A stretch of 64,000 nt of DNA from Patescibacteria group bacterium (GCA_038078615.1 JBBTWT010000007.1:1060-65059), one strand, 5' to 3'. Positions 5,384 to 63,390 are shown, counted from the stretch's first letter. A program made the numbers and translations. Notes: generated from the sequence alone by a model not told the origin.

Positions 5384-5483
5384 ACCTGATTTTTCTTGCG
5401 TACGCGGAGAAACCTCCCCAGTCCCTCTGTACACATTTTTCCACGACCGTGGAGAAATGTGTACAAATATAAAATGACGCGTG

Positions 5484-8776: not shown

Positions 8777-8848
8777 ACAGAGCCTTGATATTTTCGCAGT
8801 ATCACATAACTGACGGTCGTCATTTATGTGATACGTCCGCAGTAGCAG

Positions 8849-8913: not shown

Positions 8914-9624
8914 ATGAATTTTTTCATCGCTATCGAGCAGTTCGTCAGGACGTACGCTACGGAGGTTCCTCTCACGTGGTTCGTGTTCGTCGGCTCTTTT
9001 TTCGAGGAAGTCGTGAGCCCGATCCCATCCGCGCTCATCATGGGGACGGCCGGATCGCTCGCGCTGGTGCAGGGGAGCACGCTCTGGTATCTCGTCTGGC
9101 TGGCGCTCATCGGCAATGTCGGCAAGACGCTCGGCGCCTGGCTGTATTATCTGATCGGCGACAAGCTGGAGGATCTGCTCGTCAGGCCTTTGACAAAATA
9201 TTTCGGCGTGAAGCATGAGGAGATAGAGAACATCGGCAAGCGGTTTACGGGGCATCATCTCAAGGACGGCGGCGTCGTGTTCCTGCTGCGCGTGCTGCCG
9301 TTCGTTCCGGCACTGCCGGTATCCCTCGCCGCCGGCATCATCAAGATGGACGTGCGCGTGTATCTGCTCGCCACGTACGCGGGCAATTTTTTCAAAGACA
9401 TTTTCTATCTCTATGTCGGTTATGTCGGACTCGCCAAGCTGCATACCCTGTGGCGCGCGATAGAACCGGTGAAGTTCGGCGTCGATATACTGGTCGCCAT
9501 CGGCATCGTCATCTTCCTTGTTTTCCTGTATGTGCATCGGGGCACGGGCCAGCGTTTCCTGCGGTATTCCGACGGCCGCCTGCGCGCGGCGCTCGCACGC
9601 CTGTTTCGCAAGCGTGATTCGTAA
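8914..9624 (+). CDS. DedA / SNARE-associated family membrane protein
   Basis: FVGSFFEEVVSPIPSALIMGTAG motif and multiple TM segments. Confidence 0.8.
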   Translation: MNFFIAIEQFVRTYATEVPLTWFVFVGSFFEEVVSPIPSALIMGTAGSLALVQGSTLWYLVWLALIGNVGKTLGAWLYYLIGDKLEDLLVRPLTKYFGVKHEEIENIGKRFTGHHLKDGGVVFLLRVLPFVPALPVSLAAGIIKMDVRVYLLATYAGNFFKDIFYLYVGYVGLAKLHTLWRAIEPVKFGVDILVAIGIVIFLVFLYVHRGTGQRFLRYSDGRLRAALARLFRKRDS

Positions 9625-9642: not shown

Positions 9643-11697
9643 ATGCCGGTATTCCGTCTCCAATCACCCTATCAGCCGGCTGGCGATCAGCCTCAGGCGA
9701 TCGTGTCTCTGGTGCGCGGATTGCGCGAGGGCAAGCGTTCCCAGACATTGCTCGGCGTGACCGGATCCGGCAAGACCTTCACGATGGCCAATGTCATCGC
9801 GCAGATGGATAAGCCGGCGCTCGTCATCGCGCACAACAAGACGCTCGCGGCGCAGCTCGCGCAGGAATATCAGGAATTTTTTCCCGATCACGCCGTGCAT
9901 TATTTCGTCTCGTATTACGACTACTATCAGCCGGAAGCCTATATGCCGACGACGGATACGTATATCGAGAAAGACGCGCAGATCAATGCGGAGATCGATC
10001 GTCTGCGGCACGCCTCCACGCAGTCGCTCCTGACGCGCCGCGACGTGATCATCGTCGCTTCCGTCTCGTGCATCTACGGGTTGGGCAGTCCTGCGGAATA
10101 TGAGAAGGAGAATATGCGTCTCGAGACCGGTATGCCGTGCTCGCGGACGGAGCTCCTCCACCGGCTCGTATCCATCTTCTTCGAGCGTACCAATGCCGAT
10201 CTGTCTCCCGGGCAATTCCGGAGCATCGGCAACCGCATCGAGATCATGCCGATCTCGGAGAAATTCATCTACCTGCTGGAAATTATCGGCGGCCGACTGG
10301 GGAGCATCACGAAGATCGATCCGGTATCGCAGAAGATCCTCGATACTCCGACGACTATCTTTCTTTTTCCGACGAAGCACTTCATCACGGACAAGGATCA
10401 GAAAGATTTCGCGATACAGTCCATCCGTCTCGAGCTCGCAGCACGATTGCAGGAGCTCGAGGCCGAGGGGAAAATTCTCGAGGTGGAGCGGCTCAAGCGG
10501 CGCACGAATTATGACCTGGCGATGATGCAGGAGATCGGCTATTGCAGCGGCATCGAGAACTATTCACGCCATCTGTCCGGCAAGGAGCCTGGCGAGCCGC
10601 CGGAGACGCTGCTCTCATATTTCCCCCGCCGTCGTAAAAGCTCTGGCGGGCAGGCGCACACTGATGTTTGGGAGCCTGATTTTCTAACAATTATAGATGA
10701 GTCGCACGTGACTTTGCCGCAGCTCCGCGGGATGTACGCCGGCGATCAGGCGCGCAAGAAAACGCTCGTCGAGTACGGCTTCCGCCTGCCCTCCGCGCTC
10801 GATAACCGGCCGCTCCGCTCCGAGGAATTCATGGAGCGGGTAGGACAGATGGTGTTCACGTCCGCGACGCCGGCGGACTATGAACGCGAGACAAGCGGGC
10901 AGATCGTGGAACAGGTGATCCGTCCGACCGGTCTCATCGACCCGGAAGTGGCGGTGCTGCCGATTCATGAGACAAAAGAGTATCCTGGACAAATTCAGGA
11001 TTTTATCGCGCAGACTGAAGAAGAGGTGAAAAAAGGCGGGCGCGTGATCGCGACGACCTTGACAAAAAAGATGGCGGAGGACTTGAGTACGTATCTGAAA
11101 GAAAAGAACATCAAGTCCGAATACCTGCACAGCGATATCAAGACCATCGATCGCATCAAGATCCTGACCCGGTTCCGCAAGGGAGAGTTCGATTGTCTGG
11201 TGGGAGTGAATCTGCTCCGTGAGGGACTCGATCTTCCCGAGGTATCGTTCATCGGCATTCTCGATGCGGACAAGGAGGGATTTCTCCGATCGGAGACTTC
11301 TCTCATCCAGATCATCGGCCGGGCAGCGCGCAATGTGTCCGGCCGCGTCGTCTTGTATGCCGAACGCATTACCGGATCAATGGAGTATGCTCTCAGCGAG
11401 ACGAATCGGCGCAGGAAGCTCCAGATGGCGCACAATAAGCTGCACGGCATCACGCCGGCTACGATCAAGAAGACGATCCACGACATCACGGAAGCCTTGG
11501 AAAGCGAGCATGACAAGGCGGTGCGCGCCAACATCGGCCTGGACCGGGAGATATTCGCCAAGAACCCCGAGAAGCTCATCAGGCTGAAGGAAAAAGAGAT
11601 GCGGGAAGCGGTGAAGGCGCTGGACTTTGAAACGGCGGCGATCCTCCGCGACGAACTCGCCATACTGAGGGGAAAAACGGACAAGATGTTGGGATGA
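9643..11697 (+). CDS. uvrB: Excinuclease ABC subunit B
   Basis: GVTGSGKTFTMA, DESHVTLPQ, YGFRLPSALDNRPL, LREGLDLPEVS and the C-terminal UVR motif. Carries a 16-aa insertion at 10627-10674. Confidence 0.95.
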   Translation: MPVFRLQSPYQPAGDQPQAIVSLVRGLREGKRSQTLLGVTGSGKTFTMANVIAQMDKPALVIAHNKTLAAQLAQEYQEFFPDHAVHYFVSYYDYYQPEAYMPTTDTYIEKDAQINAEIDRLRHASTQSLLTRRDVIIVASVSCIYGLGSPAEYEKENMRLETGMPCSRTELLHRLVSIFFERTNADLSPGQFRSIGNRIEIMPISEKFIYLLEIIGGRLGSITKIDPVSQKILDTPTTIFLFPTKHFITDKDQKDFAIQSIRLELAARLQELEAEGKILEVERLKRRTNYDLAMMQEIGYCSGIENYSRHLSGKEPGEPPETLLSYFPRRRKSSGGQAHTDVWEPDFLTIIDESHVTLPQLRGMYAGDQARKKTLVEYGFRLPSALDNRPLRSEEFMERVGQMVFTSATPADYERETSGQIVEQVIRPTGLIDPEVAVLPIHETKEYPGQIQDFIAQTEEEVKKGGRVIATTLTKKMAEDLSTYLKEKNIKSEYLHSDIKTIDRIKILTRFRKGEFDCLVGVNLLREGLDLPEVSFIGILDADKEGFLRSETSLIQIIGRAARNVSGRVVLYAERITGSMEYALSETNRRRKLQMAHNKLHGITPATIKKTIHDITEALESEHDKAVRANIGLDREIFAKNPEKLIRLKEKEMREAVKALDFETAAILRDELAILRGKTDKMLG

Positions 11698-15947: not shown

Positions 15948-16646
15948 ATGACAGAGAACATCCGTGAGCGTTTTATAGTTACCGCAGACGATTACGGCAT
16001 CCGCCAGACAGCGGAGCCGATTTTGCGCTTGGCGCACGAGGGGAAGATCGATCGCGTGGCGGTGCTGATCCACTATGTCTCCGCCGAGCAGGCGGAAGCG
16101 CTCAAGGCGACGGGAGTGAAGATCGACCTGCATCTGGAACTGATCGGGCTTCTGAAAAGCGGGGAGAAGATGCATGAGAGCGTTCTCGTGCGGAGCGTCA
16201 ATTTCATATTCCGCCGTATCGCCGGGCTGGCGACCGCGAAGAAAGTCGAGCAGGAATGGAGAGACCAGATCGTGCGCTTCCGCGATATCTTCGGCCGTCT
16301 GCCCGACGGGCTCAATTCCCATGAACATCTGCACTGTTTCCCGCCGTTTTTCAGGGTGTTCACGAAACTGGCGGAAGAATACCGCATATCGTATATCCGT
16401 TTCGGGAAGAAAGGCATGCTCACCGGCCTGCATGGGGCGTTCATCGGCGAGATTCTCGCTTTCTTCTGGAAGCGGACGCATCCCGCCTATGTCAAGACGG
16501 CGCTCGCGACATCCGATTATCTCGTGAGCCTGGATTGGCTCGCGGATTTCAAGTCTTTCAGCGAACGGCTGCCCTCCGGCAGTATCGAGCTGGTCGTGCA
16601 TCTGGAGCGCGAGGAGGATTATCGGATCATACTCGAGTATTTCTGA
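15948..16646 (+). CDS. ChbG/HpnK (YdjC-like) carbohydrate deacetylase family protein
   Basis: [15 protein letters not shown] and LNSHEHLH match the YdjC-family metal-site pattern. Confidence 0.7.
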
Positions 16647-16667
16647 CGGATCTCCCGTTTTTTTGTC

Positions 16668-16696
16668 TTGATATGCCTGCCTTTCGATGGTATACT
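16668..16696 (+). promoter_or_regulatory. Promoter for the first uvrA paralog
   Basis: TTGATA (16668-16673), 17-nt spacer, TGgTATACT (16688-16696). Confidence 0.55.
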
Positions 16697-16717
16697 GCCT
16701 TTCCTATATTTTCGCAT

Positions 16718-19318
<2,601 letters not shown>

Positions 19319-20711: not shown

Positions 20712-22157
20712 ATGGAGAAACTGTGGGAGAAAATATACACGCTTGAAGCGTTTCAGAAGAAAAACGCGTTGCCGGAAGCGCCGGGAGCGTATTTTTTCCT
20801 GGACGCGGGGAAAGAGTTGCTCTATATCGGCAAGGCGACCTCGCTTCGCGATCGGGTGAAGAGCTATTTTTCGCGCGACATCGCCCTCTCTCGCGGTCCG
20901 AAAATAATGCGGATGCTCGAACAGGCGCGTTTCATCGCGTATCGGCAGACGGACTCCGTTCTCGAGGCGCTGATCCTGGAATCCAGACTGATAAAAGAAC
21001 ATCAGCCTCCATACAACACTGATGCCAAAGACGACAAGAGCTACAACCATATCGCCATCACGCAAGAAAAATTTCCGCGCGTGCTCATCGTGCGCGGCCG
21101 CGACCTCGTAAACCGACAACCGACAATTTACCCTGTGAAATCCAGCATAGCTGGTCCGCCGAAGGCGGAATTTCATAGGGCAAGCAACCGACAACAAAAA
21201 ACAAGATACAAATACATATTCGGACCGTTTCCGCACGGTATGCAGCTGCGCGAGGCGCTCAAGATCATCCGCAAGCTGTTCCCCTTCCGGGACAAATGTT
21301 TACCCGCCGAAGTCTTGACGAAGGAGGGCATGCCATCAAAAAAAAGAACAGAGCTGAAGCCGTGTTTCAACAGGCAGATCGGCTTGTGTCCCGGAGTATG
21401 CACCGGCGAGATTTCCGCACGAGAGTACGGACGCATTATCAATCACATCCGCCTGTTCTTCGAAGGGCGCAAGAGCGTGCTTGTCAGAAAGCTGGAACGC
21501 GAGATGAAGACGGCGGCGAAACAGCTGGCATTCGAGCGGGCGAGCGAGATCAAGAAGACATTGTTCGGGCTGCGGCATATCCAGGATATGGCGCTGGTGA
21601 AGGACGACCAGCAGTTAACAGTGAACAGTCAACAAAAAACAATAAGGATCGAAGCTTATGATGTCGCGCATCTGGGGGGAGACGCGAGCGTGGGAGTGAT
21701 GGTCGTTTTGAGCAATGGCCAAGCAGACAAAGAATCTTATAGAAAATTCATTCTGCGCGGCGGACACAACGGCAATGACCTGACTGCGCTCCAAGAGATC
21801 CTGGCGCGCCGTCTGAAACATACCCCGCCCGCAACGTTTCGCAAGCGAAGCGCAGCGATTCGGGCAGGCGAGTGGCCGCTGCCGGATATCATCGTGGTGG
21901 ATGGCGGAGAGCTTCAAGTGAGGATGGCCCAGCAAGCCATCCTCAACTTAGCGGTTTCACCGCTAAGTAAACTGCGTGGTGGAATTTCGGTCGTGGGCGT
22001 GGTGAAGAATGCCAAGCATCAGCCCGAGCGCCTCATCGGACCAGAGACGCTGACGAAGCGTTTCAAAAAAGAAATCCTGCTCGCCAATAGCGAAGCGCAT
22101 CGTTTCGCCATCACCTTCCACCGCAAGCGCCGAGGAAAGGAGTTTCTGAAGATGTAG
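20712..22157 (+). CDS. uvrC: Excinuclease ABC subunit C, short form
   Basis: GIY-YIG (GAYFFLDAGKELLYIGKATSLRDRVKSYF ... LESRLIKEHQPPYN), UVR domain (LEREMKTAAKQLAFERASEIKK) and RNase-H-like nuclease (IEAYDVAHLGG). It ends at FHRKRRGKEFLKM with no (HhH)2 domain. In-frame insertion at 21108-21212. Confidence 0.9.
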   Translation: MEKLWEKIYTLEAFQKKNALPEAPGAYFFLDAGKELLYIGKATSLRDRVKSYFSRDIALSRGPKIMRMLEQARFIAYRQTDSVLEALILESRLIKEHQPPYNTDAKDDKSYNHIAITQEKFPRVLIVRGRDLVNRQPTIYPVKSSIAGPPKAEFHRASNRQQKTRYKYIFGPFPHGMQLREALKIIRKLFPFRDKCLPAEVLTKEGMPSKKRTELKPCFNRQIGLCPGVCTGEISAREYGRIINHIRLFFEGRKSVLVRKLEREMKTAAKQLAFERASEIKKTLFGLRHIQDMALVKDDQQLTVNSQQKTIRIEAYDVAHLGGDASVGVMVVLSNGQADKESYRKFILRGGHNGNDLTALQEILARRLKHTPPATFRKRSAAIRAGEWPLPDIIVVDGGELQVRMAQQAILNLAVSPLSKLRGGISVVGVVKNAKHQPERLIGPETLTKRFKKEILLANSEAHRFAITFHRKRRGKEFLKM

Positions 22158-22245: not shown

Positions 22246-25044
22246 ATGCCAGAGAAAAAGCCGATGATCGAGATTCGCGGCGCGCGGGTCAACAACCTGA
22301 AGAACGTGGACGTCGATATCCCTCGTGATGCTTTGGTGGTGGTGACCGGCTTGTCCGGTTCGGGCAAATCCTCATTAGCTTTCGATACTCTTTTCGCGGA
22401 AGCGAATCGGCGCTATGTCGAGTCGCTTTCTTCGTATGCGCGCAATTTTCTCGACGGATTCGACAAGCCGGACGTCGACGCGATCCACAACCTTTCGCCC
22501 GCCATCTCCATCGACCAGAAGAGCGTGTCGAGGAGCCCGCGTTCGACGGTCGGGACGATGACGGAGATCTATGATTACCTGCGTATCCTGTTCGCCAAGC
22601 TCGGGATTCCGCATTGTCCATCGTGCGGCAAGCGTCTCACAAGAAAGAGCGTGCGCGAGATACTCGAAGAGCTCCTCCTCCTGCCCGACAAGACGCCGCT
22701 CGCATTCATCGCGTATGGCAAGGCGCTCGCCGACAAGACCGAACGCGAGGCGCTCTCACTCATCAATGCCTGGGGATACGTACGGGTCCTGTTTCACGGG
22801 GAGCTCTCGCCGATCGCCGAAGCGATAGGACGCGCGTCCGCGACGGAAATCTCGGATATCGGCGTGGTCGTCGACCGTCTCGAGATCGACCTGTCCCGTC
22901 CCGACAAGGAGCGTATCCTCGATTCGCTCCAGACCGCGTTCCGCGTCGGCCAGGGGACGCTCACGCTCCGCATCAATGGTACCGGTGAAGAACGTATCTA
23001 CAACGAGGAATACCGCTGTGAAGAATGCCATATCGGGCTGCCGGAGTTCACGCCGAGCTGCTTTTCCTTCAACAGTCCCGAGGGCGCGTGCGAGAAGTGC
23101 GCGGGCCTTGGCGTGACGCTCGAATTCGATCCGGAACTCGTCATCCCCAACAAGAACCTGTCGCTCGCCGAAGGGGCGATCCGTCCGTGGAGCAAGATGA
23201 ACAGCGACCGCCACAGCGGCAACGGGCCGATGCAGTGGCTGCGCGACGCGAGCCGGCGGCACAAATTCTCGCTCGATATTCCGGTGAAGAAGCTCGCCGG
23301 TAAGCATTTCTCCCTCATACTGCACGGGGAAGGCGGCACGGAGCAGGATGCCTTTCCCGGCATCATCGCGCTTCTGGAGAAGAAATACCGCGAGACGAAA
23401 TCGGATCATCTGCGTACGGACATCGAGGCGTATATGCTGACCAAGCTCTGCCCTCTCTGCGAGGGGAAGCGCCTGAAGGCGGCATCGCTCGCCGTGAAGA
23501 TAGAGGGACTTTCTATCGATGATCTCGTGAAGCAGAGCGTCGATATGTTCCTGGAGAGGATGAAGCCGCTGCGGGAAAAATGCCTGAAGACGGGCGAGAA
23601 GAAGATGATCGATCCCTTGTTCCGCGAGATGGAGATGCGGCTCTCCGCCGTGGAAAAAGTGGGACTCGGATATCTCGAGCTCTCGCGCGGCGCCGATACG
23701 CTGTCCGGAGGAGAGGCGCAGCGTATCCGCCTGTCAGTGCAGATGAAATCTGGGCTTTCCGGCATCATCTATGTCCTCGACGAGCCGTCGATCGGGCTGC
23801 ACAGCCGCGATACGGAACGCCTGATCAACGCGCTCGAGGATCTGCGGAAAGCGAACAATTCTCTCGTGATCGTCGAGCATGACGTGGCGATCATGCGCCG
23901 GGCGGACTATATCATCGATCTGGGTCCGGGCGCCGGCAGCGAGGGCGGCGAGATCATCTTCGCGGGCACGCCGGACAAGCTGATGCGCTCGAAGCTCCTG
24001 ACCGGCGAATACCTCTCCGGCAAACGCAGCATATCCGAGAAGAAGAAGGCGCGTCGTCTGAGCGAAGAGGCGATCACTGTTTTCGGCGCGACGGAACACA
24101 ATCTGAAGAATGTCGACGTGAAGATCCCGCTCGGGATGCTCGTGGCGGTTTCCGGCGTCTCGGGATCGGGCAAATCGAGCCTGGTGCATGACATCCTGTC
24201 CCGGGCGCTGTCGAAATATTTCTATCATGCCAAGGCCGAGCCGGGCGCGCACAGGAAGATCGAGGGGATCTCGAATATAGACAAGGTGATCGCCGTGACG
24301 CAGGATCCGATCGGACGGACGCCGCGTTCGAACGCGGCGACGTATACCGGCATCTTCAGCCTGATCCGCGACCTGTTCGCGGCGACGACGGAAGCCGAGC
24401 GCGAGAAATATTCCGCCAGTCATTTCAGCTTCAATATGCGCGGCGGCCGCTGCGAGGCATGCCAGGGCGGCGGATTGAAGAAGATCGAGATGTATCTCCT
24501 GCCGGATGTCTACGTACCGTGCGAAGTCTGTCAGGGGACGAGATACAACGCGAAGACGCTCTCGATCGAATATCGCGGAATGAATATCGCGGCCGTGCTC
24601 CGCATGACGGTCACGGAAGCGCGCCGCTTCTTCCTGGATCAGCCGATGATCGAAGAGAAGCTGCGCGTGCTCGAGGAAGTCGGTCTCGGATATCTGGTAC
24701 TCGGACAGAGCGCGACCAACCTCTCCGGAGGAGAGGCGCAGCGTATCAAGCTCGCGACAGAACTGGCACGAAAATCGACCGGCAAGACGCTCTATATCCT
24801 CGACGAGCCGACGATCGGCCTGCATTTCGAGGATGTGCGGCGCCTGCTCGAGGTGCTCGAAGCGCTGACGGACAAAGGCAACAGCGTGCTCGTCGTGGAG
24901 CACAATCTCGATGTCATCCGCTCGGCGGATTGGGTGCTGGAGCTCGGTCCGGACGGCGGCGCCAAGGGCGGGGAGCTCATCTTCTCCGGACCGCCGGACA
25001 AATTGAAAAACTGCAAGCGTTCATTCACGGCGAAATATCTATAA
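22246..25044 (+). CDS. uvrA: Excinuclease ABC subunit A (full-length type)
   Basis: [20 protein letters not shown] twice, [11 protein letters not shown], Zn modules, and an insertion-domain-length segment between CAGLG and CPLCEGKRL. Confidence 0.95.
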
Positions 25045-25084
25045 TTTTTAAAAGAGGGTTTTTTGTCTTAGAATCGAAAGCATC

Positions 25085-25149
25085 CCGGAAGTTTTCAGAT
25101 GAACCGTGCCGAAGAGGTTTCGCCACATGGTTCCCTAAAAAACTTCCGG
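25085..25149. repeat. Rod-like hairpin element, short copy (core shared with 47539-47655)
   Basis: CCGGAAGTTTT ... AAAACTTCCGG 11-bp outer stem. The inner 39-40 nt AGATGAACCGTGCCGAAGAGGTTTCGCCACATGGTTCCCT differs at 2 positions from 47561-47600. Confidence 0.85.
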
Positions 25150-25182
25150 AATCCTTTTGACACTGCGCTACTATCACAACAT

Positions 25183-35030: not shown

Positions 35031-36227
35031 ATGCCGGAGAAATATTTCATCAAGACATTCGGGTGCCAGCAGAATGTGGCTGATTCCGAGCGGCTCGGGA
35101 GCTTTTATCAGTCGCGCGGCCTTGTGCCGGCAGAGACGCCGGAAGAGGCGGACGTGCTGGTGCTCAATACCTGCGTGATACGCGATCGCGCCGAAGAAAA
35201 AGTCTACGGGATGGTCAGGAGCCTGCGCGCGCGGCTCGGGGAAAAAACGCCGCGCCTCGTCGTGACCGGCTGCCTCGTGGGAGCGGCGGCGCGCGTGCCG
35301 GGAGGCAAGATGATGAAGCGGCTGACATCCCGTTTGCTTGCCTCGCCGGCAGGCGGGCCGGACGTGGAGTTCTTGCCCATCGAGGATGTGGGTTTCGAGT
35401 ATGCGCCCAAGCGTGCCAAGGCATCCGCCAGCCGGCGGATGGCTTCGATCGTCATCTCGAACGGCTGCAACAATTTCTGCGCGTTCTGCATCGTGCCGTT
35501 TTCGCGGGGGCCGGAGCGCTCGCGGCCGTTTGCGGACATACTCGCTGAGTCGCAACAAGCGGCCGCGGAAGGCTATAGCGAGGTGATGCTTCTCGGACAG
35601 AATGTGAATTCCTACGGCGCGGATTTCTTGGTGGACAAAATAAAGACACACGAGCGGTATGTGCTGCCTGATGGGACAGCGGTGGAGCCCGTGATGGTGA
35701 AACATCTCAACCGTCACCGCATCCCGACGCTCTTTCCTCATCTTCTGGAACGCGTGGCACGGATCCCGGGACTGCAAAAAATCTCTTTCATGTCATCCAA
35801 TCCCTGGGATTTCTCCGACGAGCTGATCGACGTGATCGCTCGGAATGGGAACATCGATCGGACGCTCCACCTGCCGGTACAGGCGGGGAGCGATGAAGTG
35901 CTGAAACGCATGAATCGCTGGTACACGCGCGACGAGTATCTCGCGCTGATCGATAAGATCCGATCAAAAATACCGAATGTGCAGTTTACGACCGATATCA
36001 TCGTCGGTTTCCCCGGAGAGACGCTTGAACAATTCGGAGAGACGCTCGATCTGGCGAAGCGGGTGGATTTCGCCAAAGCGTTCATCGCGTGGTATTCGCC
36101 GCGTCCCGGCACCGCCGCGACCAAGGGCATGGAGGACGACGTGCCGATCGAGGAAAAACAGCGGCGCTTCCATGCACTCGATGCCGTGACGTTCAAAGAG
36201 AAAAAGAAAGGCCAGCCAAGTTCTTAA
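35031..36227 (+). CDS. miaB: MiaB-family tRNA methylthiotransferase (radical SAM)
   Basis: TFGCQQNVADSE N-terminal domain, GCNNFCAFCIVP radical SAM motif, and a TRAM-like C-terminus. Confidence 0.8.
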   Translation: MPEKYFIKTFGCQQNVADSERLGSFYQSRGLVPAETPEEADVLVLNTCVIRDRAEEKVYGMVRSLRARLGEKTPRLVVTGCLVGAAARVPGGKMMKRLTSRLLASPAGGPDVEFLPIEDVGFEYAPKRAKASASRRMASIVISNGCNNFCAFCIVPFSRGPERSRPFADILAESQQAAAEGYSEVMLLGQNVNSYGADFLVDKIKTHERYVLPDGTAVEPVMVKHLNRHRIPTLFPHLLERVARIPGLQKISFMSSNPWDFSDELIDVIARNGNIDRTLHLPVQAGSDEVLKRMNRWYTRDEYLALIDKIRSKIPNVQFTTDIIVGFPGETLEQFGETLDLAKRVDFAKAFIAWYSPRPGTAATKGMEDDVPIEEKQRRFHALDAVTFKEKKKGQPSS

Positions 36228-36247
36228 GGGCGGTGCTTTTTTGGCAC

Positions 36248-36283
36248 ACCTTACTTTTTATGCAATTGCATAAAAAGTAAGGT
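36248..36283. repeat. Perfect AT-rich palindrome, copy 1 of 2
   Basis: ac-CTTACTTTTTATGCAATTGCATAAAAAGTAAG-gt. The identical 32-nt core recurs at 61482-61513. Confidence 0.95.
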
Positions 36284-36375: not shown

Positions 36376-37188
36376 ATGAAAAAGAAATCTTTGACTATTG
36401 TTTCGTGGAACGTGAACGGTATCCGGGCCGTGCACCGCAAAGGCGTGTTCGAGCCATTCGTGGCGAAATATCGACCGGATATCCTGTGTCTCCAGGAAAC
36501 CAAGGCGCTCCAAGGCCAGGCGGAAATCGATCTGTCGGACTACGAGGAGTACTGGAACTCCGCGGACAAGAAAGGCTATTCCGGCACGGCGATATTCACG
36601 AAACACAAGCCGCTTGCCGTTTTCAACGGATTGCCGGCGGATATCGTGAAAAAATTCCGTCTGACGGGTGACGGCTACGGTGATCCGAATGCCGAAGGTC
36701 GGGTGATCGCGGCGGAATATGAGAATTTTTTCGTCGTGACGGTGTACACGCCCAATGCCAAACCGGATCTCTCCCGTCTCGCGCTCCGTCACAAGCACTG
36801 GGATCCAGCCTTTCTCGCGTACTGCACACGATTGGAAAAAAAGAAACCGGTGATTTTTTGCGGCGATCTCAATGTCGCTCACATGCCAGACGATCTCGCC
36901 CATCCGAAGCAGAACGAGGGCGAGCACGGATACACCCGCGAAGAACGCGAGGGATTTCAGAACTTCATCGATGCGGGATTCGTCGATACGTTCCGTCAGT
37001 TCCATCAGGGAAGCGGTCATTATAGCTGGTGGTCGCACTTCGCGAACGCCCGGGCGCGCAACGTCGGCTGGCGCATCGACTATTTCCTCGTGAGCGGCAA
37101 GCTGAAATCCAAGGTCGAAGATGCGTTCATTCTCCCGGAAGTACTCGGCTCCGATCATTGTCCCGTGGGAATCAAGCTCTCATTGTAA
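36376..37188 (+). CDS. xth: Exodeoxyribonuclease III
   Basis: SWNVNGIRA, LCLQETK, GDLNVAH and GSDHCPV motifs. Confidence 0.9.
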   Translation: MKKKSLTIVSWNVNGIRAVHRKGVFEPFVAKYRPDILCLQETKALQGQAEIDLSDYEEYWNSADKKGYSGTAIFTKHKPLAVFNGLPADIVKKFRLTGDGYGDPNAEGRVIAAEYENFFVVTVYTPNAKPDLSRLALRHKHWDPAFLAYCTRLEKKKPVIFCGDLNVAHMPDDLAHPKQNEGEHGYTREEREGFQNFIDAGFVDTFRQFHQGSGHYSWWSHFANARARNVGWRIDYFLVSGKLKSKVEDAFILPEVLGSDHCPVGIKLSL

Positions 37189-40112: not shown

Positions 40113-40201
40113 GAATACGACGAAGTCGTCCCAAACTTGATTTGGGATCTGCAAAGTAATCCATAGATACTGAATCAAGTTCAGTATGACATCGGAATGT
40201 C

Positions 40202-40636
40202 ATGTTCATCGGAGAATATTCGCACACGATCGATCCCAAGAAGCGCCTGGCGCTTCCTTCGAAGTTCCGCGGCGAACTGGGGAGCAAAGTCGTCGTGACG
40301 CGAGGACTCGACCACTGCCTGTTCGTGTACCCGATGAAAGTCTGGGGCGACCTTGCGACGAAACTGGGCACGCTGCCCGTCGGCGAATCGGGCACGCGCA
40401 GCTTCATCCGCATCATGCTCGCGGGTGCGACGGACGTGGAACTCGACAGCCAGGGACGCGTGCTTCTGCCGGAATATCTGAAGAGCGACGGCGGCCTGAA
40501 GAAAGACGTGACGATCGTGGGACTTTTCAACCGCTTGGAAATCTGGGACACGGCGAAGTGGAAGCGGTACAAAGCGCAGGCGGAGAAGCAGACCGGCAAG
40601 ATCGCGGAGGAATTGGGGAAACTGGGAGTGTACTAA
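40202..40636 (+). CDS. mraZ: Transcriptional regulator MraZ
   Basis: MFIGEY..IDPKKRLALPSKFR and a second SpoVT/AbrB-like half with DSQGRVLLP. First gene of the dcw cluster. Confidence 0.9.
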   Translation: MFIGEYSHTIDPKKRLALPSKFRGELGSKVVVTRGLDHCLFVYPMKVWGDLATKLGTLPVGESGTRSFIRIMLAGATDVELDSQGRVLLPEYLKSDGGLKKDVTIVGLFNRLEIWDTAKWKRYKAQAEKQTGKIAEELGKLGVY

Positions 40637-40637
40637 G

Positions 40638-40780
40638 GAATTTTCAATTTTTAGTTTTCAATTTTCAAACAATGATACGATGATCCAATTTTCGAAAGCT
40701 TTCCGGTTCCGCAAGGCACATTTGAAAATTAGGTCATTGGAAATTCATTAGAAATTGAAAATTGAAAATTGGAAATTGAC
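40638..40780. repeat. Inverted arrays of heptanucleotide repeats, (TTTTCAA)n and (GAAAATT)n, between mraZ and rsmH
   Basis: Left arm 40641-40668: TTTTCAA TTTTTAG TTTTCAA TTTTCAA. Right arm 40750-40780: GAAATT GAAAATT GAAAATT GGAAATT GAC. The arms are mutually complementary. Confidence 0.9.
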
Positions 40781-41747: not shown

Positions 41748-41935
41748 ACGGCAGCAACCGCCGCCAGATCGACAAAAACAAAAACAAAAAACAATCGTAT
41801 GCAGGAACGACGCCATCACGTCAGAATGATGTCTCCCGGGGGACACAGGCACGGTCTCGAGCCCGTTCGCAACGCTTTGCCAGCCCGAAAAGCTACGCTT
41901 AACGTTGCTGGCGGGCGTAGCAATGCGGGCAGGCT
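41748..41935 (+). repeat. Leader-ATG-two-hairpin cassette, copy B (homologous to 2521-2700)
   Basis: ACGGCAGCAAC, (ACAAAA)n...AAAAACAATCG, ATG 41799, then hairpins 41874-41893 and 41893-41920. Compensatory differences relative to copy A. Confidence 0.75.
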
Positions 41936-42218
41936 CGCGGGCTCGGTGCACGTGTTCGTGCTGATTGTTTTTCTGATCGCGTTCGTGGCGGGCGGAGGTT
42001 ATCTGTATTCCGTCAATCGTAGCGCGGTGCAGGGATATCATATGCGGACGCTGGAGAAGGAGATCGACAAACTCAAGCAGAATAACGCGGAGCTCAGGAT
42101 CGCCGAGGCGGATCTGCGGTCGCTCTATCGCATCGAGACCGCGGAAGAAGAGCTCGGCATGCAGAAGCTCGACACTATCATCTATCTCGAGGAACATGGA
42201 CCGATAGCTCTGCGGTAG
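41799..42218 (+). CDS. ftsL: Cell division protein FtsL-like (N-terminus encoded by the cassette)
   Basis: TM segment VFVLIVFLIAFVAGGGYLY followed by coiled-coil LEKEIDKLKQNNAELRIAEADL. Lies between rsmH and ftsI. The true start could be later (ATG 41826/41829 or GTG 41947). Confidence 0.6.
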   Translation: MQERRHHVRMMSPGGHRHGLEPVRNALPARKATLNVAGGRSNAGRLAGSVHVFVLIVFLIAFVAGGGYLYSVNRSAVQGYHMRTLEKEIDKLKQNNAELRIAEADLRSLYRIETAEEELGMQKLDTIIYLEEHGPIALR

Positions 42219-47534: not shown

Positions 47535-47538
47535 TTAT

Positions 47539-47655
47539 AGAAAAGATTTCAAAAGTTTTTAGATGAACCGCGCCGAAGCGGTTTCGCCACATGGTTCCCT
47601 GCCCGAAGTGCTACATCGTGGCAGGCGGGCCTAAAAAACTTTTGAAATCTTTTCT
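47539..47655. repeat. Rod-like hairpin (MITE-like) element, long copy
   Basis: 23/24-bp terminal inverted repeats: AGAAAAGATTTCAAAAGTTTTTAG with CTAAAAAACTTTTGAAATCTTTTCT. The inner core is shared with 25098-25136. Carries an extra hairpin CTGCC..GGCAG. Confidence 0.9.
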
Positions 47656-50080: not shown

Positions 50081-50149
50081 CATTCAGCGCGATGTTCTTC
50101 AGGAGGACGTTTGTGGGATGATCATCGTGTATATTGCTACATATCTACA

Positions 50150-50187
50150 CCTACACATCTATGTGCGACCGCACAGAGATGTGTAGG
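50150..50187. repeat. Palindromic repeat, copy 2 of 3
   Basis: CCTACACATCT-at-GTGCG-ac-CGCAC-ag-AGATGTGTAGG, ending 10 nt upstream of ATG 50198. Confidence 0.9.
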
Positions 50188-50197
50188 TCACAAAGGC

Positions 50198-50806
50198 ATG
50201 GAAGAAAAAACAAAAGCAACCAAACAAAATGGAATAACAAGGAAAATTCCCTATGGCCTTATTGGCAGGGTATTTCTAGGCTCCATAGCGGCAGTGGGGA
50301 TGGTGAGTCTCGCGGTGGCTGCACCGAACGCGATCCAGATAGCGAAGTTGTTTCAGGGACGCAGGCAGAGCTACTTTCGTCGCTATCAGGCTCCGTCGTA
50401 TGTGCGAAAAACCTTGAAAAGCCTGCATCGTCGTGGAATGGTGAGAATTTCAGAGCGGCAGGGCGAAGCGAAAGTGTATCTGACGGACAAGGGCAGGCGT
50501 GAGTTACTCAAATATAAACTCCTGGAAAAACGTTTGGAGAAGCGTCATTGGGATAAGAAATGGCACATCATCATATTTGACATTGAGGAGAAGCGTCGCT
50601 CGGCGCGCAATTGTATTCGGAAAGATATGCAATCATTTGGTTTCGCGAAACTTCAAGAAAGTGTCTGGGTGTATCCGTACGAATGTGAGGAAGCTATCAC
50701 GCTGCTGAAGACGCAGTACAAGATGGGGAAGGAACTCGTCTATATCGTTGCGGGAGACATCGAGAATGACGGATGGCTGCGGAAAAAATTCAAGCTGGAA
50801 AACTGA
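50198..50806 (+). CDS. PaaX-C / Cas2-like fold wHTH protein with N-terminal TM (putative regulator)
   Basis: TM segment, then LKSLHRRGMVRISERQGEAKVYLTDKGR (winged helix), then WDKKWHIIIFDIEEKRRSARNCIRKDMQSFGFAKLQESVWVYPY (PaaX C-domain / Cas2-like pattern). Confidence 0.6.
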   Translation: MEEKTKATKQNGITRKIPYGLIGRVFLGSIAAVGMVSLAVAAPNAIQIAKLFQGRRQSYFRRYQAPSYVRKTLKSLHRRGMVRISERQGEAKVYLTDKGRRELLKYKLLEKRLEKRHWDKKWHIIIFDIEEKRRSARNCIRKDMQSFGFAKLQESVWVYPYECEEAITLLKTQYKMGKELVYIVAGDIENDGWLRKKFKLEN

Positions 50807-50827: not shown

Positions 50828-50863
50828 CTACACATCTATGTGCGGTCGCATATAGATGTGTAG
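50828..50863. repeat. Palindromic repeat, copy 3 of 3
   Basis: CTACACATCTATGTGCGGTCGCATATAGATGTGTAG, starting 22 nt after the stop of the PaaX-like gene. Confidence 0.9.
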
Positions 50864-59814: not shown

Positions 59815-61470
59815 ATGGTCAGACGATGGGTAGACAATTTCACTTTTTGGAGCCATGCTCCCAGCAAGACGATCGGGGGAGCCGCTTTGCTTATAGCGAT
59901 AGCCGGCATAGTGAGCCGCGTGCTCGGATTCCTGCGTGACCGCATTTTGGCGTCGCAATTCGGCGCCGGCGATGTTCTGGACGCTTACTATGCCGCTTTC
60001 CGTATCCCGGACTTGATGTACAGTCTCCTGGTTCTGGGCGCGCTCTCCGCGGCGTTCATTCCTGTATTTACCGGACTCCTGAGTGAGAAAAAAGAAGACG
60101 AGGCGTGGAAACTGACTTCGGGGATGTTGCATCTGCTTCTGTTTTCGATCGGGGGGCTGTCGCTGTTCGGCATCGTTTTCGCGCCATGGCTGACGGGGTT
60201 CATCGCGCCAGGATTCGCTCCGGAGAAGAAAGAGCTTGTTATTCTGTTGACGCGCGTCATGCTGCTTTCTCCGATCTTTCTTGCGATGAGCGCGGTGTTC
60301 GGGGGAGTGCTCATCTCTTTCAAGCGATTTGCCGCGTATTCCTTCGCGCCGGTTTTCTATAATATCGGCATTATCTGCGGGATACTTTTTATCGTCCCGT
60401 TTCTGGGGCCGGTCGGTTTGGCGTGGGGAGTCGTGCTCGGGTCGTTTTTCCATATGCTGGTGCAGTACCCGGCGCTCCGGCGTTCGGGATTCCATTATCA
60501 GCTGTATTTCCTCCATGCGTGGAGGGACAAAGCCGTGCGTCGTGTCACGAAGCTGATGATCCCGCGTTCGCTCGGCATGGCGGTCAATCAGGTGAGCCTG
60601 CTCGTGATGACGATCTTCGCCTCGACGCTCGCTTCCGGCAGTCTGGCAGTCTTCACGCTCGCGAACAACATCCAGAGCGTACCTCTCGGACTGTTCGGCA
60701 TCGCATTCTCGCTCGCCGTGTTTCCATCGCTCTCCCTGTTCATCGCGGAGAAGAAAGAAGCAGCGTTTTTTACGACTTTGTCGCGGACGGCGCGGCGCAT
60801 CCTCTTTTTTGTCCTGCCGCTCAGCATCTTCATGATCATCTTCCGTGCTCAGTTCGTGCGCGTCATTCTCGGCGCCGGACAGTTCGACTGGGAGGACACC
60901 ATCCTCACGTTTGAGGTGTTGAAATTCCTCTCCATCAGCCTGTTCGCGCAGAGCCTGATACCGCTGTTCGCGCGCGCGTTTTTCGCCCTGCAGGACACCA
61001 GGACGCCGCTCTACATCGCGCTCGCGAGCGAAGCGCTCCATATCGCGCTCATTCCGATCCTCTTGCCGCAGTATGCCGTGGAGGGTTTGGCCATCGCTTT
61101 TTCGGCGAGCAGCATCCTGAACTGCGCGCTGCTTTATTTCGCCTTGCGTAGGAAAATAGCCGCATGGAACGACCGTGTATTCCTGTCGCCGATGCTGAAG
61201 ATCCTGATTGCGGCACTGATCGCCGGCGCCATCGCGCAGGCTTCCAAATCAGTCTTCGCGCTCACGACCAATGAGCTCGATACGTTCGTCGAGGTGTTCT
61301 TGCAGCTCATCACGGGACTCGCGATCGGCGGAGTATCGTTCGTCGCGGTGTGCCACTGGTTCCGGATAGATGAACTGCGGATGGTCAGGCGCTTCATCGT
61401 CTGCAAAGTTCTGCGCCAGCCGGAAACCGCCGCTCTTGCCGAAGACCACCCGGAACGCGGCGACTGGTAA
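59815..61470 (+). CDS. murJ: Lipid II flippase MurJ (MviN)
   Basis: RVLGFLRDRILASQFGAG...DAYYAAFRIPDL N-terminal signature and about 14 TM segments. Confidence 0.9.
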   Translation: MVRRWVDNFTFWSHAPSKTIGGAALLIAIAGIVSRVLGFLRDRILASQFGAGDVLDAYYAAFRIPDLMYSLLVLGALSAAFIPVFTGLLSEKKEDEAWKLTSGMLHLLLFSIGGLSLFGIVFAPWLTGFIAPGFAPEKKELVILLTRVMLLSPIFLAMSAVFGGVLISFKRFAAYSFAPVFYNIGIICGILFIVPFLGPVGLAWGVVLGSFFHMLVQYPALRRSGFHYQLYFLHAWRDKAVRRVTKLMIPRSLGMAVNQVSLLVMTIFASTLASGSLAVFTLANNIQSVPLGLFGIAFSLAVFPSLSLFIAEKKEAAFFTTLSRTARRILFFVLPLSIFMIIFRAQFVRVILGAGQFDWEDTILTFEVLKFLSISLFAQSLIPLFARAFFALQDTRTPLYIALASEALHIALIPILLPQYAVEGLAIAFSASSILNCALLYFALRRKIAAWNDRVFLSPMLKILIAALIAGAIAQASKSVFALTTNELDTFVEVFLQLITGLAIGGVSFVAVCHWFRIDELRMVRRFIVCKVLRQPETAALAEDHPERGDW

Positions 61471-61478
61471 TATTTCAG

Positions 61479-61516
61479 AGTCTTACTTTTTATGCAATTG
61501 CATAAAAAGTAAGACT
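61479..61516. repeat. Perfect AT-rich palindrome, copy 2 of 2
   Basis: agt-CTTACTTTTTATGCAATTGCATAAAAAGTAAG-act. The flanks differ from copy 1 but are still self-complementary. Confidence 0.95.
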
Positions 61517-61536
61517 TCTCTCGGAGGCTGATTTTT

Positions 61537-63390
61537 ATGAGACAACAGAACATCCGCAATTTCTGCATCATAGCCCATATCGATCACGGGAAGTCCACGC
61601 TGGCCGACCGCCTGCTTGAGCTGACGAAAACCGTGGAGATGCGCAAGATGAAGGAACAGCTTCTGGATCAGATGGATCTCGAGCGCGAGCGCGGCATCAC
61701 GATCAAGCTGCAGCCGGTGCAGATGCATTACAAAGTCAAAAGTCAAAAGTCAAAAGTCAAAAGTGACAAGAGCGGGGGCGAAGAGGAAGAAGTTGAATAT
61801 ACTTTGAATCTGATCGATACGCCGGGACACGTGGACTTCCATTACGAGGTGTCCAGGTCGCTGGCGGCCGTCGAAGGCGCGGTGCTGCTCGTCGACGCGA
61901 CCAAGGGCGTGCAGGCGCAGACGCTCGCCAACCTGTACCTGGCGATCGGCCAGGGGCTGACGATCATTCCGGTCGTGAACAAGATAGACTTGCCCAACGC
62001 GGAGACGGAAAAGGTGAAAAAAGAGATCGTGCATATTCTGGGCTGCAAGGAGGAAGACATACTGCTCGCGTCCGGGAAAACCGGTATGGGCGTGCAGGCA
62101 TTGCTCGAGCGCGTGATCGAGCGTGTGCCCGCACCGGAGGGAGACGAAGCCAAGCCGCTTCGCGCGCTCATTTTCGACTCCATCTACAATACGTACAAAG
62201 GAGTGGTGGCGTACGTGAAAGTGGTGGACGGAACCGTGAAACGCGATGATGCTCTCCATATGCTCGGGACGGAAAAAGAAGGCGTGACGGTGGAAGTCGG
62301 CCTGTTTAAGCCGGGTCTGGTACCGACGGATATCCTGCGCGCCGGTGACATCGGCTATATTGCGACCGGATTGAAAGCGGTCGGGGATTGCCGCGTCGGC
62401 GATACGGTGACGTGGAAACCGCGGGAACGCGCGCCTATCGTCGTCGAACGATTGCCCGGCTACAAGGAAATCCGACCGGCGGTCTATGCGAGTTTCTATC
62501 CCGTGGACGGCGATGACTATACGCTGATGCGCGACGCGCTCGAAAAGCTGAAACTCAACGATGCGGCATTCACCTTCGAGCCGGAAAGCAATCAGGCGCT
62601 GGGTCGCGGTTTCCGCTGCGGTTTCCTGGGACTCCTGCACCTCGAGATCATCCAGGCGCGGCTCGAGCGCGAGTTCGGTCTCACTCCGACGATCACGACG
62701 CCGTCGGTCGTGTATGAACTCGCACTCCGCGGAGACGACAGGCGCATCCCGCTGTATTCGCCGGCCGCACTGCCGGATCCGGCCAGTATCGAGAAGATAT
62801 ATGAGCCGTATGTCGCCCTCTCGATCGTGGCACCGAGCGGGTATCTGGGAAACGTGATGGCGCTCGCTCAATCCATCCGCGCGGACTACAAGAATACGGA
62901 ATACATCGATGCCGAGCGTGTGTTGCTCACTTTCGAAGCGCCGCTGATGGATGTCATCATCAATTTTCACGATGATCTGAAAAGCGCCTCATCCGGCTAT
63001 GCCTCGATGAACTATGAGCCGATCGGCTACCGCGAGAGCGACGTCGTGAAGCTCGACATCCTGGTCGCCGATGAGCGTATCGATGCGTTCGCGCGCATGA
63101 TACCGAGGCGCGACGCCTATGCCGAGGGCAAACGCGTCGTCGAGAAGCTGAAAGAGGAGATCCCGCGCCAGAACTTCGCCGTGGCCATCCAGGCGGCTAT
63201 CGGCGGCAAGGTCATCGCCCGCGAGACGCTCTCCGCCTACCGCAAGGACGTCACCGGCAAGCTGTACGGGGGGGATTTTTCCCGCAAGAAGAAGCTGCTC
63301 GAGAAACAAAAGAAAGGCAAAAAAAAGATGCGCGATATCGGCAAAGTCTCCATTCCGAGTCATGCTTTTCTGGCAGTCTTGAGAAAGTAA
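61537..63390 (+). CDS. lepA: Elongation factor 4
   Basis: IRNFCIIAHIDHGKSTLADR, DTPGHVDF, NKIDL and the LepA C-terminal domain. 15-aa insertion encoded by heptamer repeats. Confidence 0.95.
   Translation: MRQQNIRNFCIIAHIDHGKSTLADRLLELTKTVEMRKMKEQLLDQMDLERERGITIKLQPVQMHYKVKSQKSKVKSDKSGGEEEEVEYTLNLIDTPGHVDFHYEVSRSLAAVEGAVLLVDATKGVQAQTLANLYLAIGQGLTIIPVVNKIDLPNAETEKVKKEIVHILGCKEEDILLASGKTGMGVQALLERVIERVPAPEGDEAKPLRALIFDSIYNTYKGVVAYVKVVDGTVKRDDALHMLGTEKEGVTVEVGLFKPGLVPTDILRAGDIGYIATGLKAVGDCRVGDTVTWKPRERAPIVVERLPGYKEIRPAVYASFYPVDGDDYTLMRDALEKLKLNDAAFTFEPESNQALGRGFRCGFLGLLHLEIIQARLEREFGLTPTITTPSVVYELALRGDDRRIPLYSPAALPDPASIEKIYEPYVALSIVAPSGYLGNVMALAQSIRADYKNTEYIDAERVLLTFEAPLMDVIINFHDDLKSASSGYASMNYEPIGYRESDVVKLDILVADERIDAFARMIPRRDAYAEGKRVVEKLKEEIPRQNFAVAIQAAIGGKVIARETLSAYRKDVTGKLYGGDFSRKKKLLEKQKKGKKKMRDIGKVSIPSHAFLAVLRK
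61734..61768 (+). repeat. Heptanucleotide tandem repeat (AGTCAAA)x4 plus one degenerate unit inside lepA
   Basis: AGTCAAA four times (61734-61761), then AGTGACA. Encodes KSQKSKVKSD. Confidence 0.95.

Follow-up and report, generated by a model that had tools for sequence, protein, structure and literature searches.

The 64-kb stretch of DNA analysed here (the window), which comes from a Patescibacteria group bacterium, carries two copies of a perfect palindrome. They belong to a small family of dispersed hairpins, AT-rich and perfectly palindromic, that occurs in Parcubacteria-type CPR bacteria. Judged from sequence, there is about an even chance that the element is a dispersed hairpin of a REP-like kind that acts at the RNA level, between cistrons or at 3' ends. 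Very little has been characterised of the non-coding signals (promoters, terminators, repeats) in the tiny genomes of CPR/Patescibacteria; the searchable literature yielded no account of their dispersed palindromic repeats or terminator types, and searches on the motif, on CPR together with REP and on Parcubacteria terminators returned nothing pertinent. The element is most likely a previously undescribed variant, in CPR, of the dispersed gene-end hairpin class. The two copies and their neighbours are, in window coordinates:

35031..36227, + strand: gene for a MiaB/RimO-family radical-SAM methylthiotransferase (Pfam UPF0004 and Radical_SAM; names of homologues)
36233..36247, + strand: hairpin GTGC-TTTTTTG-GCAC, directly 5' of copy 1; weak match to a terminator-like consensus
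36248..36283, no strand: copy 1, a 36-bp perfect palindrome with its core at 36250-36281 and the centre CAATTG, in the miaB-like/xth spacer
36376..37188, + strand: xth, exonuclease III-like (Pfam Exo_endo_phos), with rarA next downstream
59815..61470, + strand: murJ, lipid II flippase (Pfam MurJ; gene calls in L009), with a DUF4012 gene upstream
61479..61516, no strand: copy 2, a 38-bp perfect palindrome with its core at 61482-61513, in the 66-nt murJ-lepA spacer
61524..61528, + strand: lepA Shine-Dalgarno sequence GGAGG, 7 nt past the copy 2 palindrome (read from the sequence)
61537..63390, + strand: lepA (EF4) (Pfam GTP_EFTU/LepA_C; exact match to a Patescibacteria MAG protein)

The first-pass annotation had described an identical 32-nt palindrome at two distant loci, with flanks that differ and are still complementary, and both parts of this description were borne out. 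The sequence CTTACTTTTTATGCAATTGCATAAAAAGTAAG occurs exactly at 36250-36281 and 61482-61513 and nowhere else in the 64-kb window, where no further copy with up to three mismatches was found, and the symmetry continues outward through AC/GT in copy 1 and AGT/ACT in copy 2. The chance expectation is 0.00 copies (100 dinucleotide shuffles), and the two copies are a real repeat, non-random and evolutionarily maintained. They share a block of 32 nt only, with unrelated sequence beyond the dyads, are built of the arms ACTTTTTATGC / GCATAAAAAGT, and have a GC content of 26-28% versus about 55% for the window. The predicted hairpin has an RNA z-score of about -7 and a DNA/ssDNA energy of about -15 kcal/mol (-14.9 for copy 1 as DNA). 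Copy 2 is not an assembly artefact, since the independent assemblies L009 and L010 carry the identical sequence and a homologous palindrome occupies the same site in relatives. LepA and the MiaB-like protein of the window have exact matches in the MAG GCA_964365145.1 and in a 0.2-um assembly of Hainich groundwater; over 11-12 kb, the two are 100% identical to the window. The closest homologues of both proteins all belong to Candidatus Moranbacteria (Patescibacteria/CPR), and the window is assigned to a groundwater MAG of that lineage.

Pfam searches agree with the neighbours that had been named for both copies: copy 1 lies between a MiaB/RimO-family gene and an ExoIII-like xth, and copy 2 between murJ and lepA, with the end of its core 24 nt from the lepA ATG as had been stated. 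Copy 1 starts 20 nt past the stop of the miaB-like gene (36227) and ends 92 nt ahead of the xth ATG (36376). This 92-nt spacer holds, just 5' of the ATG, a promoter-like TTGCGA-N17-TATGCT that was recognised by eye and is sub-threshold in the scan, and xth has no Shine-Dalgarno sequence. Terminator-like consensus matches, including the hairpin at 36233..36247, are no more numerous than in shuffled sequences and are thus weak evidence. Copy 2 starts 8 nt past the murJ stop (61470) and ends 20 nt ahead of the lepA ATG (61537); because this 20-nt gap holds only the Shine-Dalgarno sequence and leaves no space for a promoter, lepA must be transcribed through copy 2. Overlapping the murJ stop, TGGTAATAT at 61465-61473 reads as an extended -10 element (TGnTAATAT) that would put a transcript start at roughly the first base of the copy 2 hairpin; this is probably fortuitous, as TGGTAA is constrained by coding and L011 and L012, the two nearest relatives, have not kept the hexamer.

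The window is typical CPR housekeeping DNA (nrdDG, uvrABC, type IV pilus genes, rsmH (MraW), rml, murJ, lepA), with nearly all genes on the + strand; a 600-aa ORF downstream of rsmH was read as a PBP without a Pfam scan. Pfam scans of ORFs covering most of the 64-kb window turned up no transposase or recombinase domain (Y1_Tnp included) and no partner protein for the 32-mer. The nucleotide excision repair set is unusually complete and duplicated for a reduced genome, with two full-length UvrA paralogues 3 kb apart (16535-19318 and 22246-25044; 927 and 932 aa), uvrC (20712-22157) between them and uvrB (9643-11697) upstream. The anaerobic ribonucleotide reductase NrdD appears split, the ORF at 352-2469 covering positions 2-530 of Pfam NRDD and a 92-aa ORF at 2580-2858 having positions 531-562, the C-terminal glycyl-radical end (...RVMGYHRPV...). 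A direct repeat of 85 nt with 79% identity links the latter ORF (2622-2706) to a 139-aa ORF between rsmH and the 600-aa ORF (41859-41943), the encoded peptides being 53% identical over 36 aa (ALPARKA.LN...). There is also an AT-rich inverted repeat, TCAATTTTTAGTTTTCAATTTTCAA / TTGAAAATTGAAAATTGGAAATTGA at 40644-40668 / 40755-40779, 88% complementary and made of TTGAAAAT-like units, which spans from the ORF 40186-40683 (no Pfam hit; L021 has mraZ there) to the start of the rsmH ORF (40755).

Other hairpin repeats are present in the window. One palindromic family (2470-2506, 5428-5465, 8799-8834, 50149-50188 and 50828-50863) has the form ..ACACAT-N7-CGRYCG-N7-ATGTGT.., is 36-40 nt long with 1-2 mismatches and has an asymmetric centre. 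Its members lie 1 nt past the nrdD stop (where the palindrome opens the 110-nt gap of the split NrdD), 16 nt ahead of a C39-like peptidase ORF and downstream of a canonical terminator, 23 nt past the stop of a DEAD-helicase gene, and on both sides of a PaaX-like gene; like in the 32-mer family, the inner blocks of 7 nt vary between copies and complementarity is kept. The PaaX-like gene (ORF 50111-50806, start probably after 50188) encodes PaaX central (Cas2-like) and F-93 winged-helix domains and sits in a stretch of lower GC content (0.49-0.50 at 48-52 kb); the ORF may encode the cognate binder of this second family or be a small acquired cassette. A third hairpin repeat (25073-25160 and 47537-47655) shares a 64-nt block with 84% identity (...AGATGAACCG.GCCGAAG.GGTTTCGCCACATGGTTCCCT), folds with -39 and -57 kcal/mol (z -3.0 and -7.1), has no Rfam match and is found about 30 nt past the second uvrA paralogue, whose stop is at 25044, and directly past the rmlC stop (47534).

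The 32-mer family extends well beyond the window. A scan of representative genomes, a collection without the source genome, with a 22-nt core as query gave two matches, a Doudnabacteria MAG, in which the core lies within a perfect palindrome of 34 bp that takes up a 47-nt spacer between convergent genes, and a Clostridia MAG with the bare 22-nt core only. A scan of metagenomes with the pattern ACTTTTTATGC-NNNN-GCATAAAAAGT gave five independent loci, on Kaiserbacteria contigs and three other contigs, and in all five the free centre is itself palindromic (CATG in three, TATA and GATC, versus AATT in the window) and the flanks beyond the pattern are complementary for 2-6 further bp, with different sequences. 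A member consists of a sequence-conserved upper stem (ACTTTTTATGC / GCATAAAAAGT), a centre that is always N-AT-N' and an outer stem of 2-8 bp, which is arbitrary in sequence, yet complementary. One of two metagenome loci (L003/L005) matches a Candidatus Kaiserbacteria genome (A2673 locus tags) exactly and the other at >=90% protein identity; therefore, that lineage too has two copies, with the same 26-nt core and outer stems that differ. Moranbacteria and Kaiserbacteria have the same 11-nt arm, an identity that carries the ascertainment bias of the search pattern and that suggests sequence-specific recognition by something.

A covariance model (R1) built from the 11 members recovered all of them and, in addition, one decayed second member in the locus L008, 20 nt past a stop codon. 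Multiple copies are seen in the window, in L011, in the Kaiserbacteria loci and in L008 (two in each), all of them intergenic, at a density of two per 64 kb in the window and 0-2 per 10-22 kb in related loci. Members follow alaS, lie at dnaE-thrS, rnc-smc, murJ-lepA and miaB-xth, upstream of a NUDIX gene, at a GT4 gene and in two convergent spacers. The L008 members (9070-9140 and 9238-9315), one decayed and one perfect, share a spacer at a distance of 170 nt; they are unlike in centre and outer stem and their 3' tails are alike over about 30 nt (CGG(AG)AGAAATAAATAAAAAYAAAGAA...), so the repeated unit may include the tail in that low-GC organism. At the gathering score, Rfam gave no match in the window and 8 related loci, the only matches being sub-threshold ones to miRNA precursors (generic hairpins). 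The 26-nt pattern has no match in viral contigs, plasmid and phage records show no relevant similarity, and the single viral-contig match to a looser pattern, a bare core without an outer stem and in an unrelated context, was not counted as a member.

Pairing in the family is constrained. In a centred, sense-oriented alignment of the 11 members (A1), 88% of cells pair, versus 71% in column shuffles (reached in 0 of 500) and 40-47% after a shift of the partner by 1-3 columns. Both sides have changed in 15 of 22 pairs, and columns 8-11/38-41 show 3-4 Watson-Crick pair types each with almost no mismatches; the inner-arm pairs of the five metagenome members, being fixed by the search pattern, are uninformative here, the outer stem and the centre being free. 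The pair beside the central AT always co-varies (4 pair types), though it is unpairable in a hairpin, and nearly all pairs of the inner stem are Watson-Crick rather than G.U. These last two properties point to a constraint on symmetry at the DNA level, which a role as an RNA hairpin leaves unexplained. Together with the identity of the arms and the combination of a shared core with unshared outer stems, they give a hint of a DNA-level symmetry or copying process, for which template-switch correction or a symmetric factor that binds hairpins or cruciforms would be candidates.

Copy 2 has orthologues in relatives, and copy 1 has none in the relatives retrieved. Palindromes orthologous to copy 2 are found in the nearest relatives (L011 and L012, LepA 89-90% identical), at the same position of a 65-66 nt murJ-lepA spacer, with cores that differ from copy 2 at 7/32 (L011) and 5/32 (L012) positions. 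The differences include compensated changes, TAC/GTA to CAC/GTG in the orthologues and ATGC/GCAT to ACGC/GCGT in L011, for which L012 has the T.G intermediate. A second, more diverged member of L011 (L011_b) has two further compensated pairs; it starts 1 nt past a stop codon and has A5 on one side and T4 on the other, the T4 lying inside the stem base. Four more distant relatives (L013, L014, L023 and L024) lack the palindrome, and all four have a canonical A-tract/GC-stem/T-tract terminator 10-25 nt past the murJ stop (for example AAACCCCGC...GCGGGGTTTTT); L014 also has a GC hairpin followed by T6 in the spacer orthologous to that of L011_b. The L013 terminator scores weakly in the covariance model (E about 0.01) and may, therefore, be a degenerate orthologue. 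The murJ-lepA spacer measures 65-66 nt with the palindrome versus 0.5-1.1 kb in the terminator-bearing relatives, which have in common a promoter-like TTGCYT-N17-TACCCT just ahead of lepA, recognised by eye. In L014 and L023 this element (TTGCYT-N17-TACC(C/G)T) lies only about 7-10 nt ahead of the lepA start, which implies a leaderless or nearly leaderless lepA mRNA, and L013 and L024 have an extra hairpin (GTGTAATACGA...TCGTATTACAC-like) between it and the lepA start.

In the orthologous miaB-xth spacers (L016, L017, L018-L020 and L021/L022), no palindrome was found and the sequence is not alignable; L016 comes from the same MAG as L012, which carries an orthologue of copy 2. Copy 1 is, as read from these comparisons, a lineage-specific gain, and a recent duplication or gene conversion is indicated by its absence from the orthologous spacers and its identity to copy 2 at 32/32 positions, when the true orthologues of copy 2 have diverged. 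New copies would arise by duplication or gene conversion of the core, and copy 1 may have been derived recently from the murJ-lepA element or from a third sibling.

Members of the family tend to follow genes closely. The stem starts 1-41 nt past the upstream stop at 7 of the 10 independent sites counted (L012 was left out as an orthologue of copy 2); two members (L001 and L007) fill convergent spacers, 6-10 nt from the stop of the facing gene, and L005, L007 and L008_B are far from the upstream stop (96-312 nt). This is the location of an intrinsic terminator, shortly past the stop codon and on the sense strand of the upstream gene. Two other hallmarks are missing: in place of a short GC-rich stem with a small loop, the stems are 14-21 bp long with 26-36% GC, and no general U-tract (at least 5 T in the 8 nt directly 3') follows them. 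As had been noted for the two copies, there is no consistent T-run, with 0-5 T in the 8 nt past the stem (3, 3, 5, 1, 3, 0, 1, 1, 3, 0 and 2 in the 11 members, only L011_a reaching 5), and the terminator scan flags neither copy. Canonical terminators are used elsewhere in the same genome, such as the GC stem plus T7 after 5315; whole-segment MFE after stop codons is uninformative at the GC content of this genome. The element is, thus, not a canonical intrinsic terminator, because its tails are not T-rich and its stems are AT-rich. The earlier judgement that it is a poor intrinsic terminator holds as far as the missing T-run and the AT-rich stem are concerned, and is overstated if taken to dismiss any role at transcript ends, since the palindrome occupies the terminator slot and 4/4 palindrome-less relatives have terminators there.

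It is this combination (a terminator slot, yet no U-tract, an AT-rich stem, canonical terminators elsewhere and a lepA without space for its own promoter) that leads to the reading as a REP-like hairpin that is partly read through. According to this proposal, members sitting in the terminator slot just past stop codons would, when transcribed, fold into a hairpin of 16-21 bp. It would either mark the upstream message at its 3' end, or protect it there, or serve as an intercistronic attenuator or processing hairpin, without being a strong terminator; the murJ-lepA hairpin would be read through, at least in part, into lepA.

Other explanations place the origin or the function in the DNA. The suggestion of the first-pass annotation that the palindrome could be a hairpin-type dispersed or mobile element gains support from copy 1, a lineage-specific gain identical to copy 2, and from the two same-core copies of Kaiserbacteria. 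In its full form, a dedicated enzyme (a RAYT/IS200-IS605-type Y1 transposase, a serine or tyrosine recombinase or a hairpin/cruciform nuclease) would read the upper stem as a hairpin or cruciform and copy or move the core, and the location after genes would merely reflect tolerated insertion. We consider this unlikely, although cores that match exactly within each of two lineages at sites that are not orthologous (over 32 nt in the window and over 26 nt in the Kaiserbacteria loci), the gain of copy 1 in a single lineage, an arm conserved in sequence across CPR classes beside a free outer stem, the symmetry through the centre with nearly pure Watson-Crick pairing, and the presence of >=2 other dispersed hairpin repeat families in the same genome are all in its favour. 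Transposase and recombinase domains are absent from the Pfam-scanned ORFs over most of the 64-kb window and from the precomputed gene tables of those related loci that were retrieved through their proteins; direct target-site duplications are lacking, the flanks being inverted and not direct; a GTAG-type REP head is missing, copies are sparse, plasmids and phages show no similarity and viral contigs only one bare core, and the copy 2 site is stably orthologous in three genomes. A more minimal version, which seems slightly less probable still, is a perfect palindrome of about 26-32 bp of core that propagates itself, is common to several CPR classes and would copy itself into gene-end hairpin slots at the DNA level, through a hairpin/cruciform enzyme that reads ACTTTTTATGC or through templated palindrome correction. 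If true, it would explain the centre symmetry, the Watson-Crick-only stems and the same cores with unrelated outer stems, and would replace canonical terminators by read-through hairpins in ultra-small genomes. Template switching is an established mutational mechanism that can extend palindromes outward and symmetrise their centres, and taken alone it offers an explanation without function or recognition, in which a gene-end hairpin is kept palindromic by replication template-switching (quasi-palindrome correction) and the identity of copies is due to gene conversion. This would account for the complementary but different flanks and the N-AT-N' centre, and the L013 terminator does resemble a degenerate relative; it is nevertheless improbable, since it leaves unexplained both the exact core of 22-26 nt common to Moranbacteria, Kaiserbacteria and other contigs and a full copy in a spacer that has no alignable counterpart in relatives.

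The site of a dimeric DNA-binding protein, which the palindrome had also been taken to resemble, is not supported by the comparison: there are compensated double substitutions inside and outside the core, even between the two L011 copies, two members are convergent, and no set of downstream genes is conserved. As an operator, TTTTTATGC-N-AT-N-GCATAAAAA would be read on duplex DNA by a symmetric dimeric protein (a global regulator or a nucleoid-associated protein) controlling xth, lepA and other downstream genes, an idea that fits a perfect dyad including its centre, half-sites of 9-11 bp strongly conserved across lineages and several members lying 20-43 nt 5' of a start codon (lepA, the NUDIX gene of L008 and the GT4 gene of L011); the palindromes of another family that flank the PaaX-like winged-helix regulator gene also indicate that operator-like palindromes may exist here. 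Its probability is, nonetheless, as small as that of the neutral by-product. The half-sites are conserved, but the flanks and some core positions co-vary, with an outer stem that has no sequence conservation and is still complementary and with compensated double substitutions between the L011_a and L011_b cores; a fixed protein specificity would neither tolerate nor require such compensated changes, and so the covariation counts against an operator. Moreover, L001 and L007 are flanked by convergent genes, an arrangement in which a promoter is not expected; the downstream genes are unrelated housekeeping genes and share no coherent regulon, and ordinary terminators replace the site in relatives. 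A promoter reading of the palindrome (sigma-54 or sigma-70) was discarded by direct reading and by scan, as neither spacing nor hexamers fit, and a dif/Xer site was rejected because, compared with what is generally known of dif, the orientation of the arms and the 4-nt spacer do not fit. A LexA/SOS operator, to which the arms-N4-arms architecture and the repair genes of the window had drawn attention, was rejected owing to the covariation and to the published Patescibacteria LexA motif, which is described as a direct repeat and not a palindrome (PMC7739468), a point that also weighs against operators in general.

With the REP-like gene-end hairpin as the preferred reading, the family has traits (conservation across classes, compensated change, de novo appearance in a spacer and substitution for canonical terminators) that provide a handle on operon punctuation, and the covariance model could serve to annotate transcript boundaries in CPR MAGs. 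The family could also mark a new copying mechanism or a hairpin-recognising factor; should it prove to be no more than a stabiliser hairpin of the REP type, it would extend a known class only modestly.

Several known systems share features with the element, which would behave most like REP elements or repeats embedded in terminators. Intrinsic terminators, including the bidirectional ones with an A-tract, a stem and a T-tract, also lie a few nucleotides past the stop, form a strong hairpin and occupy the same slot in relatives, and terminator-like tracts flank L011_b (A5...T4) and L001 (A7 on one side); they differ from the element in its long AT-rich stem, the lack of a consistent U-tract, the repeated and conserved sequence and the expression of lepA through it. 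The inverted pairs of DUS (Neisseria) and USS (Pasteurellaceae) similarly have a conserved motif of approximately 10 nt paired as the stem of a gene-end hairpin, and the host group depends on competence-type DNA uptake, with type IV pilus genes in the window, whereas the element shows no lone arms, a density that is orders of magnitude lower and an arm spacing fixed at 4 nt, though the metagenome pattern imposed that spacing. An uptake signal of this kind was rejected because of its low density, as the 16-nt arm (up to three mismatches) occurs in the window only inside the two palindromes and in one match with three mismatches. The sites of serine invertases and resolvases (hix, gix) resemble the element in their 26-bp dyad, A5/T5 tracts in each half-site and central dinucleotide, but there is no sequence similarity and no recombinase nearby, and the element has co-varying complementary outer stems and lies at the ends of unrelated housekeeping genes. 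A MITE has terminal inverted repeats between direct target-site duplications and a related autonomous IS; the flanks of the element (AC/GT, AGT/ACT) are inverted complements, and no IS with matching ends was found in plasmid or phage records.

REP sequences are classically involved in the stabilisation of mRNA 3' ends and in intercistronic attenuation. In REP/REPIN-RAYT systems they number tens to hundreds per genome, and the cognate RAYT (Y1 transposase) gene usually has REPs beside it. The element departs from the REP/BIME sequences of Proteobacteria, which are mobilised by RAYT, in being a perfect palindrome without bulges, symmetric through its centre and AT-rich in a GC-rich genome, with a core conserved across class-level lineages instead of species-specific. 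It is present at two copies per 64 kb and without REPIN doublets, the alignment shows no GTAG head, and no RAYT gene was seen in the window (no Y1_Tnp among its scanned ORFs). Like them, it is a short (about 35 nt) extragenic palindromic hairpin found mostly at 3' ends or between co-transcribed genes, with several homogeneous copies within a genome and divergence between genomes, and in both cases a single genome may harbour several such families.
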